From sequence record LR877332: a stretch of DNA of 64,000 nt; one strand, 5' to 3'. The stretch is from Shigella phage vB_SsoM_JK08. Below are positions 2,148-8,071 of this stretch, piece by piece. The position numbers and the translations under genes are program-made. The notes beneath the pieces are model-generated. The model had not been told where the DNA came from, did not search any database, and saw nothing but the letters and a program-made list of their open reading frames with translations. How positions within the stretch are numbered: the stretch's first letter is position 1; each line of letters starts with the position of its first letter.

Positions 2148-2741
2148 TTATTTCAGAGAATTAATGTATTCCTGAACATCGGCAGAGGTAGTTTCAACCC
2201 CAGAAATATTACCGTTAAAGGTTTCAACTCGAGCAAGGGTATCTTCAATATCAACCTTAGTCAGTGCTGCAATTTCAACTACATCATCAGCAGTACTAAT
2301 TCCAAGGGCATTTGCTGCACGAGTTTCACGGATATATTCCAATTTAACCGCAAGTTCTTGACGAGCATCATCTAACTCAACTACTTTCTTGGCGATTTCA
2401 ATTCGCATTTCAGCATAACCGTCAGCCTTAGTAGTCAACTGCTCAGCTGTTCGACGATATAGTAAACCGAGTTTAGCATGCATTGTTACATCTTGGCCTT
2501 CGGAAAGAAGTTTACGAATTTCACGCTCTTTTGATTCGGCCTGTCGATTCTTTTCGATAACAAGTTCACGAATACGTTTTTCTTCGTTAATAGATTTAAC
2601 AGAAGCAGTTTTTAGATCTTTAATTTTATCAAGTAGTTTTGCTGCTGCAGCAGTATACTGTTCTTCGACAGATAGATTTTTAGCCATAGCAGAACCAAGT
2701 TTAGTGCGAATAAACTCAACAATTTTCTTCAGTGTGTTCAT
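2148..2741 (-). CDS. coiled-coil protein, possibly PspA/IM30-like
   Basis: 197 aa, charged heptad-like sequence throughout, amphipathic N-terminus; promoter-early stem-loop immediately upstream. Confidence 0.6.
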
Positions 2742-2807
2742 AGTATTTCCTTAGGTTAATTGAGATTTAAAATCCGTAGGAGTATAATACTCTATCGTCA
2801 AATTATA

Positions 2808-2842
2808 GGCTCATAATATCTCAATCATGAGCCTGCGTAAAC
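2808..2842 (-). promoter_or_regulatory. early promoter with stem-loop (PeSL-like)
   Basis: On minus strand GTTTAC -35, about 18 nt spacer, TATTAT -10 embedded in inverted repeat GGCTCAT...ATGAGCC; upstream of gene 2148..2741. Confidence 0.5.
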
Positions 2843-3106
2843 TTATTTCATATTATTGAAATATTCTTCTGCGATTTCGTCGTTATCATGGTAAACTTTA
2901 GAAGACAGTTTAACATAACCTTCTGCTGTGAACATATTAATCACAACTTTTACAGTATACCACTGACCGTCTTCATTACCCATTACTGCGTAAGTTTCAA
3001 ACATCGGATGATCAGGACCGATAACTTTAATATCATTCACTGTACGACCGAAATCTTCTGAAACGCATTTCATAAAGAAGTTGAACAGTTCGCCGTAATT
3101 ATCCAT
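2843..3106 (-). CDS. hypothetical protein
   Basis: Start set at ATG 3104-3106 (MDNYGELF) with GGAG 8 nt upstream; the longer track ORF to 3226 lacks a ribosome-binding site. Confidence 0.5.
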   Translation of the reverse strand: MDNYGELFNFFMKCVSEDFGRTVNDIKVIGPDHPMFETYAVMGNEDGQWYTVKVVINMFTAEGYVKLSSKVYHDNDEIAEEYFNNMK

Positions 3107-3149
3107 TTCATTCTCCAAGTTGTTTTCTGTATCAGTAGTTGATAGTTGT

Positions 3150-3178
3150 ATAGTACCATGGAAGAACAGAGATGTAAA
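3150..3178 (-). promoter_or_regulatory. early sigma70-like promoter
   Basis: Minus strand TTTACA, 17 nt spacer, TACTAT; preceded by TTTCACAAA block shared with the ipI-locus promoters. Confidence 0.45.
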
Positions 3179-3335
3179 CAGTTTTGTGAAAAAATTTTTA
3201 GGGAATTCTAGGGCAGGGATGGGCAATTAAAGGATAGGATAATATATTATAAAGGGTATAAACTAAATGATGCCTAGAGAGGTCCAGAAAGGCCTAGATA
3301 CCAAAAAGCCCTATCATTTAGATAGGGATTTAAAA

Positions 3336-3899
3336 TTATTTACCTAGTTTACTTATTATAGCTTCTGCAGCAGCTTTTAGCTTAGATGCAGTGTTAATAC
3401 GATTTTTAATTTCAGTATACGCATCGCCAAGAACATCAAGGCTATCAGAATAAACACTTACACTATTGCGTTCGCTATTTGAAATAGAACCTTTAGTTTT
3501 GCGGTCAAAATCGGTGTACACGTCTTGAAGATCGCGGGCTGCCTTCTTTGCATCATCCAATGCATCAAGAGCTTTATTCAAAGCATTAACGTATTTTTTA
3601 GTGTCGAACATATTCTTAGAAATTTTAACAGGTGCGCGTTCAGGAGTAGCTAACACAGATTTAGGAACCTGAGCGCCAGATGCCAATTTCTTAGAAATTT
3701 TGAAAAATGCTTTATTGAATTTATTTTCTTGACTCATTGTAAAAGAACTATTATCGATGTTGTACATTTCAATAGCTTTAGCTTTCCACTTAAGAAAATC
3801 GCCGCGGTCTTTTGGGTCCAATTGGAAGAATACTTTAGTAAGATCTGCTTCAGATGGTAATTTTGCTGCTTCGGTTAAAAATTCGGCATAGGTTTTCAT
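3336..3899 (-). CDS. internal-protein-like capsid-targeted protein
   Basis: 187 aa; N-terminus MKTYAEFLTEA matches the T4 internal protein capsid-targeting sequence MKTYQEFIAEA, with a protease-type LTE site. Confidence 0.6.
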   Translation of the reverse strand: MKTYAEFLTEAAKLPSEADLTKVFFQLDPKDRGDFLKWKAKAIEMYNIDNSSFTMSQENKFNKAFFKISKKLASGAQVPKSVLATPERAPVKISKNMFDTKKYVNALNKALDALDDAKKAARDLQDVYTDFDRKTKGSISNSERNSVSVYSDSLDVLGDAYTEIKNRINTASKLKAAAEAIISKLGK

Positions 3900-3989
3900 T
3901 TAAAATCCTTGAAATAATTTATCGGTTGGTTATTAATTATTTATTACTTTGTTACTATCCGTAACAGCGTTATCCGAGTGATTCAAACT

Positions 3990-4016
3990 AAAAAGCCCCA
4001 ACCTTTCGGTCGGGGC
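3990..4016 (-). terminator. rho-independent terminator
   Basis: GC-rich hairpin GCCCCGACCGAAAGGTTGGGGC followed by U-run on the minus strand, just after the stop of gene 4025..4498. Confidence 0.6.
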
Positions 4017-4024
4017 TAAGAATG

Positions 4025-4498
4025 TCATTTGATTTGTTTAGCAGACCAAATGCGGTCTTTAATAATTTTTTGGATGTCTTCAACATACTCAAGAGAGTGA
4101 ACATGTGGATTATCTTTGAAACTATAAGCACGGGCTAACTTTTGGCCTTCGGTTTTGATTACTAAAAGCTCTTTAAGGATAGCTTCATATTTGGAGATAA
4201 TTCCTTTAACAATATTTTTCTCTTGTGTGACTTTAGGATCTTCTTTAGGAGCAGGTTTACCTGAAGCCTTTGCAAAAGCAGCTCCAGTAGCAACTAAACT
4301 TTTCCAAGCCATACTAACTGCATTCCCTGTAAATCCTTCGGCTTTCATATCACGAGCAAATTGGAATCGTGATTCATCGGAAGCATCTTTATAGGAATAT
4401 TTACCCGCGGCAATGGCAGCTTTTGCAACAGCTTGAATTTCAGTGCTAGATGCTTCATTTAACACCGCTTCATTTAAAAATTGAGTATATGATTTCAT
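4025..4498 (-). CDS. internal-protein-like capsid-targeted protein
   Basis: 157 aa; N-terminus MKSYTQFLNEA resembles the capsid-targeting sequence; late promoter TATAAATA directly upstream. Confidence 0.6.
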   Translation of the reverse strand: MKSYTQFLNEAVLNEASSTEIQAVAKAAIAAGKYSYKDASDESRFQFARDMKAEGFTGNAVSMAWKSLVATGAAFAKASGKPAPKEDPKVTQEKNIVKGIISKYEAILKELLVIKTEGQKLARAYSFKDNPHVHSLEYVEDIQKIIKDRIWSAKQIK

Positions 4499-4534
4499 CT
4501 TATTTCCTGTTTTAATTCGGGGTTTTAATATACT

Positions 4535-4542
4535 TATTTATA
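4535..4542 (-). promoter_or_regulatory. T4-type late promoter TATAAATA
   Basis: Exact TATAAATA on minus strand about 37 nt upstream of ATG 4498. Confidence 0.55.
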
Positions 4543-4544
4543 CT

Positions 4545-4571
4545 AAAAAGCCCCAACCTTTCGGTCGGGGC
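4545..4571 (-). terminator. rho-independent terminator after tRNA/stable RNA cluster
   Basis: Same hairpin sequence as at 3990-4016, followed by U-run on minus strand. Confidence 0.6.
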
Positions 4572-4625
4572 TAAGCCTTGCGGCAACCTTGTCGGGGTTC
4601 CACCTTCTAAGGCAAGTGTTTGTAC

Positions 4626-4888: not shown

Positions 4889-4964
4889 TGGTCGAGGCAG
4901 TAGGGATCGAACCTACGACCCAGGACTTAGAAGGTCCTTGCTCTTCCTTCTGAGCTATGCCTCG
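4889..4964 (-). tRNA. tRNA-Arg (anticodon TCT), CCA encoded
   Basis: Manual cloverleaf: acceptor CGAGGCA/TGCCTCG, D-stem GCTC/GAGC, anticodon stem AGGAC/GTCCT with loop CTTCTAA, T-loop TTCGATC. Confidence 0.85.
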
Positions 4965-4968
4965 TATT

Positions 4969-5043
4969 TGGCGGACGTGATAGGATTCGAACCTATAACC
5001 AATCGCTTAACAGGCGATCGCTCTGCCATTGAGCTACACATCC
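4969..5043 (-). tRNA. tRNA-Asn (anticodon GTT), CCA encoded
   Basis: Cloverleaf: acceptor GGATGTG/CACGTCC, D-stem GCTC/GAGC, anticodon loop CTGTTAA, T-loop TTCGAAT. Confidence 0.8.
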
Positions 5044-5047
5044 AAAT

Positions 5048-5134
5048 TGGTGGGGAGTGGTGGAGTCGAACCACCCGAGTCGCAATGACAATGAATTTAC
5101 AGTCCACACCGCTACCTCTACGGGATAACTCCCC
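5048..5134 (-). tRNA. tRNA-Tyr (anticodon GTA), long variable arm
   Basis: Acceptor GGGGAGT/ACTCCCC, anticodon loop CTGTAAA, long variable arm, T-stem GGTGG/CCACC; D-arm and anticodon stem less canonical. Confidence 0.6.
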
Positions 5135-5143
5135 AAATTAATT

Positions 5144-5218
5144 TGGTGGCCCTGGGTGGAATTGAACCACCATCTGGCGATTATGAGTCGCTTGCTTGAA
5201 CCTTCCAGCTACAGGGCC
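5144..5218 (-). tRNA. tRNA with anticodon CAT (Met, or Ile if lysidine-modified)
   Basis: Acceptor GGCCCTG/CAGGGCC, anticodon loop CTCATAA, T-loop TTCAATT; occupies the position of T4 tRNA-Ile. Confidence 0.75.
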
Positions 5219-5219
5219 T

Positions 5220-5295
5220 TGGTGCTGATTGACGGAATCGAACCGCCGACCTTCTCATTACAAGTGAGTTGCTCTACCTACTGAGCTAAATCAGC
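5220..5295 (-). tRNA. tRNA-Thr (anticodon TGT)
   Basis: Acceptor GCTGATT/AATCAGC, D-stem GCTC/GAGC, anticodon loop CTTGTAA, T-loop TTCGATT. Confidence 0.85.
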
Positions 5296-5300
5296 AAAAC

Positions 5301-5390
5301 TGGCGGAGGCGATAGGATTTGAACCTATGAGTCGCCGGAGCGACTGCCGGTTTTCAAGACCGGTGCATTAAACCACTCTGCCACGCCTCC
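5301..5390 (-). tRNA. tRNA-Ser (anticodon TGA), long variable arm
   Basis: Acceptor GGAGGCG/CGCCTCC, anticodon stem CCGGT/ACCGG with loop CTTGAAA, variable-arm helix AGTCGC/GCGACT, T-loop TTCAAAT. Confidence 0.85.
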
Positions 5391-5392
5391 AG

Positions 5393-5466
5393 TCTCCGTG
5401 GCAGGATTTGAACCTACGACATTCTGCTCCCAAAGCAGACGCTCTACCAAACTGAGCTACACGGAG
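5393..5466 (-). tRNA. tRNA-Pro (anticodon TGG), CCA not encoded
   Basis: Acceptor CTCCGTG/CACGGAG, D-stem GCTC/GAGC, anticodon stem TCTGC/GCAGA with loop TTTGGGA. Confidence 0.85.
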
Positions 5467-5476
5467 TAAATTAAAT

Positions 5477-5550
<74 letters not shown>

Positions 5551-5555
5551 AAATT

Positions 5556-5642
5556 TGGTGCGAGAAGTGGGACTCGAACCCACAAGGAAATCATTCCGCA
5601 GCATTTTAAGTGCTGTGCCTTTACCAATTTGGCCATTCTCGC
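5556..5642 (-). tRNA. tRNA-Leu (anticodon TAA), long variable arm
   Basis: Acceptor GCGAGAA/TTCTCGC, anticodon stem CAGCA/TGCTG with loop CTTAAAA, T-loop GTTCGAGT; one nt from tRNA-Gln. Confidence 0.85.
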
Positions 5643-5643
5643 G

Positions 5644-5716
5644 CTGGGAATAAAGGACTCGAACCTTTGCATCCTGGAATCAAAATCCAGTGCCTTACCA
5701 ACTTGGCTAATTCCCA
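5644..5716 (-). tRNA. tRNA-Gln (anticodon TTG), CCA not encoded
   Basis: Acceptor TGGGAAT/ATTCCCA, anticodon stem CTGGA/TCCAG with loop TTTTGAT, T-stem AAAGG/CCTTT. Confidence 0.85.
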
Positions 5717-6687: not shown

Positions 6688-6706
6688 TTTATTCTCCTCA
6701 GTAGTA

Positions 6707-6744
6707 GATAGGGTAATAGTATCACTACCCTATCTAAAAGTAAA
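6707..6744 (-). promoter_or_regulatory. promoter-early stem-loop (PeSL) cassette
   Basis: Minus strand TTTACT -35, 17 nt spacer, TACTAT -10 inside perfect inverted repeat GATAGGGTA...TACCCTATC. Confidence 0.55.
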
Positions 6745-6745
6745 C

Positions 6746-6979
6746 TTATTTTTTACGAAAAATTGATTTATTTTCTGCTGCCCATTTTTCAATAACTGCA
6801 GCAGGACCAGTAACAACAATTTTATCACCGTAATCTTCTGCGGCGAGTTGACCGAAATTATCTAATGCATCACGAAGAACTCCATGAGGCATTTCACCCA
6901 TTTTATCTTTCTTGCCAGTGTAAATAAACTCAACTTTTACATCAGCAGTTTCAGCAATAAATTCTTGGTAAGTTTTCAT
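6746..6979 (-). CDS. internal-protein-like capsid-targeted protein (ipI-locus cassette)
   Basis: Start chosen at MKTYQEFIAE (ATG 6977-6979), identical to the T4 capsid-targeting sequence; the track ORF starts 4 codons earlier at 6991. Confidence 0.55.
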   Translation of the reverse strand: MKTYQEFIAETADVKVEFIYTGKKDKMGEMPHGVLRDALDNFGQLAAEDYGDKIVVTGPAAVIEKWAAENKSIFRKK

Positions 6980-7005
6980 TTTGATTTCCATTTGGTTTTG
7001 TTTTG

Positions 7006-7042
7006 ATAGGGTAATAGTATCACAACTAAAACCCTATGTAAA
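7006..7042 (-). promoter_or_regulatory. promoter-early stem-loop (PeSL) cassette
   Basis: TTTACA, 17 nt spacer, TACTAT with inverted repeat TAGGGT...ACCCTA; adjoining 30 nt block GTAAACAACTTTGTGAAATTATTTTAAATC repeated at 7367-7396. Confidence 0.55.
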
Positions 7043-7055
7043 CAACTTTGTGAAA

Positions 7056-7313
7056 TTATTTTAAATCTTCTAATCGTTTCTTCATCTTAGAACCATTTTT
7101 AGCAATTTCTCCTGCATCGGAGCATAATGCTAAAAGTGCTTTAACTTTAGTTTGGTCTCCTTTAAAAGATGAAGGATCGACCGCAGCAGCAAGTTCTTTA
7201 ATACGAGAGAAAAGACGCTCAGCTTCAGCTAAAGCCATTCCAAGCTTTACTTCCATACCGTGGGAAGATTCGGTGATAGTAGTTTTTGTAGCAAACTCTT
7301 TGAAAGTTTTCAT
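7056..7313 (-). CDS. internal-protein-like protein at the ipI position
   Basis: 85 aa, N-terminus MKTFKEFATK resembles the capsid-targeting sequence; sits next to 57B where T4 has ipI. Confidence 0.55.
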   Translation of the reverse strand: MKTFKEFATKTTITESSHGMEVKLGMALAEAERLFSRIKELAAAVDPSSFKGDQTKVKALLALCSDAGEIAKNGSKMKKRLEDLK

Positions 7314-7335
7314 TTTTATTTTCCTAATTAATTTT

Positions 7336-7373
7336 GATGAGGTAATAGTATCACTACCTCATCAGTATGTAAA
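7336..7373 (-). promoter_or_regulatory. promoter-early stem-loop (PeSL) cassette
   Basis: TTTACA, 17 nt spacer, TACTAT inside inverted repeat GATGAGGTA...TACCTCATC, immediately after 57B stop. Confidence 0.55.
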
Positions 7374-7386
7374 CAACTTTGTGAAA

Positions 7387-8071
<685 letters not shown>

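Follow-up and report, generated by a model that had tools for sequence, protein, structure and literature searches.

A family of probable T4-type internal head proteins encoded by two tandem genes between rnaC and e.8 of a Tequatrovirus

The window (the whole 64,000-nucleotide stretch of Shigella phage vB_SsoM_JK08 analysed here) belongs to a Tequatrovirus, and the locus described below is 100% identical to that of Yersinia phage PYps35T and Escherichia phage a15. A further Tequatrovirus, vB_EcoM_G9062, has 99.8% identity over the region of the two genes of interest, designated A and B, which are also found in the BASEL phages Paracelsus and WilhelmHis at 98% DNA identity. All genes of the region lie on the minus strand, in the order gp3, gp1, 57A, 57B, two short ipI-locus genes, trna.4, trna.3, trna.2, ten tRNAs (5716-4889), rnaD, rnaC, A (4498-4025), B (3899-3336), e.8 (3106-2843), e.6 and e.5. 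A and B are thus located between rnaC and e.8, outside the two loci described for internal proteins (57B to trna.4, and denV to e), and this location is a feature of place, not of mechanism. The features of the region are as follows.

7056-7313, minus strand: ipI-locus gene 1, start MKTFKEFATKTTITE, phrog_3499
6746-6979, minus strand: ipI-locus gene 2, start MKTYQEFIAE, phrog_8111
4889-5716, minus strand: ten tRNA genes (Arg, Asn, Tyr, Met, Thr, Ser, Pro, Gly, Leu, Gln)
4549-4572, minus strand: rnaC terminator hairpin AGCCCCGACCGAAAGGTTGGGGCT, GAAA loop followed by a T-tract; -20.3 kcal/mol, z -3.5
4535-4542, minus strand: late promoter TATAAATA of A, T4-type, right after the terminator T-tract and 36 nt upstream of the ATG
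4025..4498, minus strand: gene A, 157 aa, phrog_2280, start MKSYTQFLNEAVLNEA
Residues 1-10 or 1-15 of A, minus strand: leader of A, with L-N-E/A twice
4451-4480, minus strand: 15-bp tandem duplication in the A leader (FLNEA and VLNEA), 12 of 15 positions identical
3994-4017, minus strand: terminator hairpin AGCCCCGACCGAAAGGTTGGGGCT downstream of A, same sequence as the rnaC terminator; -20.3 kcal/mol, z -4.5
3938-3945, minus strand: late-promoter variant AATAAATA, one mismatch, 38 nt upstream of the B ATG
3336..3899, minus strand: gene B, 187 aa, phrog_2280, leader MKTYAEFLTE/A
3309-3327, minus strand: terminator hairpin CCCTATCTAAATGATAGGG downstream of B, different from that of A and weaker; -10.5 kcal/mol

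The two ORFs of 157 and 187 aa had been picked out in a sequence-only reading for starts that are variants of the T4 capsid-targeting sequence (CTS), and both are real. The same reading placed an exact late promoter in front of A, which is confirmed on the minus strand, and the same hairpin after each gene, which is not: the GC-rich AGCCCCGACCGAAAGGTTGGGGCT brackets A, whereas B is followed by CCCTATCTAAATGATAGGG. Regarding the neighbourhood, the window has ten tRNA genes versus eight in T4; Asn, Tyr and Met are extra, and tRNA-Ile and the homing endonuclease gene segB are missing. The T4 gene e.7 is absent between e.8 and e.6 (2742-2842); at this position fD1 has a 58-aa ORF, and e.7 is retained in RB27 and slur03. 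No Rfam match overlaps A or B.

The window contains 23 copies of TATAAATA, against 9.7 expected from shuffles. The element occupies the equivalent place, 25-40 nt 5' of the family gene and directly behind the preceding terminator, in seven phages (RB27, slur03, fD1, IME08, ESh15, KMB19 and ATCCa) from five genera (Tequatro-, Dhaka-, Mosig-, Karam- and Jiaodavirus). For B, neither an exact late promoter nor a sigma-70-type promoter was found on the coding strand, and AATAAATA is the sole promoter-like element in its 5' leader. This variant also stands in for TATAAATA at the orthologous site in Shf125875, and it is the sole candidate in RB69, which carries the B cassette alone. We infer from its sequence and position that the element at 3938-3945 may function as the B promoter.

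Comparison with related phages indicates how the locus is built. In T4 the rnaC terminator joins the e.8 upstream region directly (GGGGCTTTTT followed immediately by GGTATCTA), with no gene of the A/B family. The upstream hairpin (4549-4572) is the rnaC terminator shared with T4 and marks the point of cassette insertion relative to T4; it forms the upstream copy of a 40-nt direct repeat (repeat D4) that flanks A, and the hairpin at 3994-4017 forms the downstream arm. The two copies are 95% identical, and recombination between them would be predicted to restore the T4 state. A single cassette, composed of TATAAATA, gene A and the second hairpin copy, occupies the site in RB27, slur03 and fD1. 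In the window A is followed by B, the B hairpin by a T-tract, and identity to T4 picks up again at GGTATCTA (3295-3302). Judging from the states of the site among phages (empty in T4, A only, B only, and A plus B) and from the junctions, which are terminator T-tracts, the locus is a series of promoter-gene-terminator cassettes that abut at these T-tracts.

Two further patterns were considered and rejected. The idea that RB69 acquired its B cassette recently was dropped because the entire rnaC-e.8 block is 93-96% identical between the phages, and RB69 B is therefore not exceptional. The annotation of the RB69 gene (2597-3159 of the extracted region L013) divides it into two ORFs, ORF149c and ORF148c; the split corresponds to a one-base difference near codon 122 and represents a pseudogene or an old sequencing error. 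The second pattern was a complementary distribution of A and ipII/ipIII. PYps35T (L011, 2309-3279) has no gene between denV and lysozyme gene e, where T4 has ipII and ipIII, and G9062 is likewise gene-free there. However, RB27 and fD1 have Ip4 in addition to A, and consequently there is no clean replacement pattern. Ip4 (157 aa, beta-rich and unrelated to A) replaces denV in RB27 and lies just past denV in fD1.

Both proteins match phrog_2280 ("unknown function") over their full length, A with an E-value of 2.8e-60 and B with 2e-53, and the products of the syntenic genes in IME08, KMB19, ESh15, fHe-Yen9-01 and KP01 match it with E-values from 1e-52 to 1e-59; the query proteins may sit in the training set of this profile. 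The bodies of A and B had been described as unrelated to each other, which is true only for BLASTP, where the 11-residue leader alone aligns, and for shallow profiles (leader-trimmed families compared by hhalign, E 0.03 and probability 1.6%). The link is seen only once intermediates from HMMER and tblastn are added. An exhaustive HMMER search with B identified a relative (P0026) that is 31% identical, and tblastn from P0026 extended the set to 350 phage records. With the leaders taken off, hhalign then related the A family to the broadened B family with a probability of 94.7% (E 6e-8, 97 columns), and B to the intermediates with 96.5% (E 9.5e-10). The homologous stretch comprises the last helix of the N-domain, a Pro/Lys-rich linker and a C-terminal helical hairpin. 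The N-terminal three-helix modules are of two types, A-type (AGKYSYKD...) and B-type (MTK..W...GERGDF...YGI). On these profile alignments A and B are remote paralogues of one family.

The AlphaFold model of A (pLDDT 77) comprises a three-helix N-domain (residues 18-71), the Pro/Lys-rich linker (72-87) and the helical hairpin (88-154). The model of B has the same three-part layout, and with a low confidence (pLDDT 58) it is to be taken as indicative. Fold searches with the models returned generic helical hairpins and no informative structural match, and searches of Pfam, NCBIfam and PDB sequences with A and B gave sub-threshold noise only; as a control, T4 IPI matched PF11634 (IPI_T4) with an E-value of 7e-54, and A and B had no Pfam match. 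The remote-homology and structure checks suggested beforehand therefore lead to a PHROG of unknown function and to generic helical hairpins, with no Pfam, NCBIfam or PDB relative. An NCBI entry from a 100-kb contig (P0012) encodes a protein of 182 aa in which an A-type leader and N-domain precede a C-terminal half of unrelated sequence; this could reflect another exchange of modules within the family or a chimeric assembly.

The family gene is syntenic, 3' of the tRNA/small-RNA cluster and 5' of e.8 or e.6, in five Tevenvirinae genera, the relatives being Dhakavirus IME08, Mosigvirus ESh15 and Shf125875, Karamvirus KMB19 and Jiaodavirus ATCCa, whose genes all match phrog_2280. The divergence of the family gene exceeds that of its neighbours: against RB27, identity is 77% for the family protein versus 99% for e.8/e.6, and against IME08 it is 25-28% versus 74-83%. 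In all of the roughly 150 database rows listed the phrog_2280 gene is called "hypothetical", and even in genomes with Ip7 or Ip9 labels the annotators gave it no label. This universal annotation is the one point in favour of regarding one or both ORFs as frames that arose by chance in AT-rich inserted intergenic DNA. Against it, A is intact in 511 phage records and B in 164, remote homologues with 25-45% identity retain both frame and position, and peptides of an A orthologue have been seen by mass spectrometry (see below). Chance frames are effectively refuted for A, and for the pair we consider them extremely improbable. One source (JGI/IMG) labels B an "isopenicillin N synthase-like dioxygenase", which is unsupported by sequence or model and looks like an annotation artefact.

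In order to evaluate the N-termini, the full 64 kb, translated in six frames, were searched for the loose leader motif MK[STAE][YFW]x[EQKD][FYL]. It occurs four times, each at the start of an ORF (A, B, 7056-7313 and 6746-6979). According to amber-suppression work on the IPIII leader, targeting depends mainly on residues 4 and 7, and processing on residues 8 and 10 (PMC9026906, section 2.6, a review of Black's work). Both A and B have Y4 and F7, and Y/F at position 4 with F at position 7 is found in 12 of the 12 family members examined. All four key positions (Y/F4, F7, L/I8 and E10) are kept in 11 of these, from five genera; E10 is present in 11 of 12, and in RB27 the Glu is displaced by one residue. 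The L-x-E site noticed in the sequence-only reading lies at residues 8-10 in both proteins, as L8-N-E10 in A and as L8-T-E10 in B (start MKTYAEFLTEA), and A has a second copy at 13-15 (L13-N-E15). The 15-bp duplication thereby doubles the putative prohead-protease site of A. It is not found in the RB27 and Shf125875 orthologues, which have a single copy of the motif, and leader length in the family consequently ranges from 10 to about 20 residues.

The leaders of the A-type and B-type subfamilies are 54% identical, compared with 21% for the bodies, and the Glu-Ala junction after the leader is conserved in the family. Cleavage would yield a mature A of about 15.6 kDa (pI 9.50) and a mature B of about 19.6 kDa (pI 9.54), both without Cys, which resemble T4 IPI-III (pI 9.0-9.65). 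For the A orthologue, the predicted mature N-terminus is AVLNEASSTEIQAVAK if the cut falls after E10, and ASSTEIQAVAK if it falls after E15. The late promoter TATAAATA also fits packaging, because a prohead component needs late expression. Evidence from virions comes from Yersinia phage fD1, whose g140 product was particle-associated at the strict LC-MS/MS threshold (Skurnik et al. 2021, PMC8309999; data in ProteomeXchange PXD026812); this protein, Gp140, has 157 aa and is 98% identical to A. The threshold was also passed by Ip4 (g129) and IPI (g146), the region's two remaining CTS proteins (PMC8309999). This proteome is unspecific: DenV, lysozyme e, NudE, e.5 and e.6 are among the 113 gene products, out of 277, that passed (PMC8309999), and the detection of Gp140 thus represents only about a threefold enrichment. 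A literature search found no virion proteome that covers B, and no paper naming RB32ORF133c.

A different explanation is that A and B are late cytoplasmic proteins that are not packaged, their leader-like start being a product of cassette recombination in which the RBS and first codons are shared. Consistent with this, the start regions of the four leader genes are alike in DNA (repeat families D3 and D6, 64-77% identity), and the proteome that detected the A orthologue also caught clearly non-structural proteins. However, the critical leader residues are retained despite very diverged DNA and bodies, including in Karamvirus and Jiaodavirus, the E-A junction behind the leader is conserved, and the late promoter suits a prohead component. 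An unpackaged role is accordingly a quite improbable one. The reading of A and B as capsid-targeted, late-expressed and candidate injected proteins holds up, on the CTS residues, the promoter position, the size, charge and lack of Cys, and fD1 Gp140. It is highly probable from these features that A and B are packaged and processed, and we infer that packaging occurs through the leader and is followed by processing and injection.

Leader-bearing polymorphic internal proteins were reportedly described by Repoila and colleagues in 1994, and T4-type internal-protein targeting is said to have been reported by Mullaney and Black in 1996. A and B share with the T4 internal proteins an N-terminal CTS of 10-19 residues that agrees at the key positions and includes an L/I-x-E site for cleavage, a small, basic and Cys-free mature product, and the condition of non-essential accessory genes on short promoter-gene-terminator cassettes that vary between related phages. 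They differ in several respects. Their bodies have no detectable homology to IPI, IPII, IPIII, Ip4 or the two ipI-locus genes, each of which falls in a separate PHROG annotated as internal protein (4363, 7857, 5341 and 3155 for the IPI, IPII, IPIII and Ip4 families, versus 2280 for A and B). They occupy a third locus (rnaC to e.8), whereas the known internal proteins lie at ipI or at ipII/ipIII. A is driven by a canonical late promoter, in contrast to the early-promoter stem-loop element of the classical internal-protein genes. Finally, the phrog_2280 family is conserved in position over five genera, unlike the known internal-protein loci. The kind of protein is already known, but phrog_2280 has not been recognised as such a family, an early mention (1994) being possible; judged by leader, position and profile, the family is conserved and modular and marks a third locus for internal proteins.

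The cassettes can likewise be compared with the promoter-early stem-loop (PeSL) cassettes of T4-like phages, on which Arbiol is said to have reported in 2010. Both PeSL elements and cassette behaviour at internal-protein loci have been documented (Comeau 2014, PMC4122927). As with PeSL, repeated terminator stem-loops flank single accessory genes, and the junctions of presence, absence and duplication fall at the repeats; unlike PeSL, A and B have a repeat that consists of the rnaC-type terminator only, together with a late promoter. PeSL-type repeats of 70 nt, with stem-loop and early promoter, are found at the ipI locus (6703-6773, 7001-7071 and 7332-7402), and none around A or B. Both ipI-locus genes of the window are leader-bearing and bracketed by these elements, and neither is T4 IPI. 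For the second of them the mechanical ORF (6746-6991) begins MEIKMKTYQEF; the true start is the second Met (6979), according to the leader consensus and to the annotations of PYps35T and G9062.

We propose that A and B are probably a tandem pair of paralogues from a T4-type internal head protein family that lacks annotation, and that they would be injected and most likely block a type IV restriction enzyme. RNA polymerase directed by gp55 would initiate late at TATAAATA, and B would be expressed through the AATAAATA variant and/or by read-through. The capsid-targeting sequence, with its aromatic residue at position 4 and Phe at 7, would dock both proteins on the scaffolding core of the prohead, where the gp21 prohead protease would cut the leader after Glu10 (and/or Glu15 in A). 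The basic mature proteins, of about 16 and 20 kDa, would remain in the head with the DNA and be co-injected. In the new cell they would most likely block a modification-dependent (type IV) enzyme that the other internal proteins leave uncovered.

The last step is drawn by analogy. T4 Ip1, Ip2 and Ip3 each inhibit one distinct GmrSD-type enzyme, without cross-protection (PMC12373910). Ip3 is required on ECOR17, and host-expressed Ip3 is active without its leader (PMC9391042). McrBC is the target of a fourth protein with such a leader, Bas37_0260 (HIDEN-SEQ preprint, bioRxiv 10.1101/2025.11.20.689424), and all four of the CTS proteins with known targets are thus inhibitors of type IV restriction enzymes (PMC12373910; bioRxiv 10.1101/2025.11.20.689424). 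Like Bas37_0260, Ip2 and Ip3, A and B are CTS-bearing accessory proteins of Tequatrovirus, and for the former the functions emerged only on the right host; these precedents set the expectation for the function of A and B. In contrast, the three known proteins come from classical loci and are genetically tested, whereas A and B are known here from sequence. Since T4 has no member of the family, its genetics are not transferable to A and B. By analogy with Ip1-3 and Bas37_0260, A and B may be inhibitors of further modification-dependent nucleases, and the faster divergence than e.8/e.6, the exchange of N-modules between subfamilies and the cassette variation are consistent with anti-restriction. 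We consider the case for an anti-defence role to be evenly poised.

The position kept across genera and the basic nature of a protein with long hairpins count against a purely anti-defence role, and for the same reasons the main rival is a physical one. According to this, the packaged A and B would mainly neutralise or organise the DNA, or serve head assembly or ejection, and would not inhibit a defence. Both are basic proteins rich in Lys that contain long helical hairpins and a Pro/Lys linker, and the family position is conserved in five genera. In T4 heads the lysines of internal proteins touch DNA phosphates (PMC3012670), and IPIII mutants show slower head assembly and a burst of about 40% of normal (PMC9026906). 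On the other hand, T4 manages without the family, the bodies outpace their neighbours in divergence and N-domains have been swapped between subfamilies, which fits target-driven diversification, and IPIII is an inhibitor of GmrSD in spite of its assembly phenotype (PMC12373910). A mainly physical role is therefore rather unlikely, and the example of IPIII indicates that physical and anti-restriction roles can coexist.

At the ipI locus genes turn over between strains; the five-genus synteny contrasts with this and could mean that the family has a broader role. A further reading, of low probability, is that phrog_2280 represents modular injected effectors of the Tevenvirinae as a whole, with a conserved C-terminal hairpin and swappable N-modules, whose target is a defence other than GmrSD and McrBC or a conserved host factor. 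The hairpin would then serve packing, oligomerisation or DNA association, and the A-type or B-type N-terminal module would set the target specificity. Such modularity would explain why the position is held in five genera while the sequence races.

T-even phages are widely used in phage therapy. Internal proteins help determine their host range, and the literature counts two internal-protein loci (PMC12373910); in the 2025 work every internal protein tested inhibited a single type IV restriction enzyme with high specificity (PMC12373910). The phrog_2280 family would add a third locus; more than 500 sequenced phages have the family, with a "hypothetical" label in every one listed, and its carriers include the collection phages RB14, RB27 and RB69 and the BASEL phages Paracelsus and WilhelmHis. 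Its members are candidate inhibitors to be paired with orphan variants of GmrSD or of other defences, and the leaders of A and B may provide natural variants of the capsid-targeting tag for loading cargo into T4 heads. That more leader-bearing proteins exist would not surprise a specialist; an unannotated family with a late promoter, syntenic across the genera sampled and carried by hundreds of phages of the therapeutic type, is a concrete lead.
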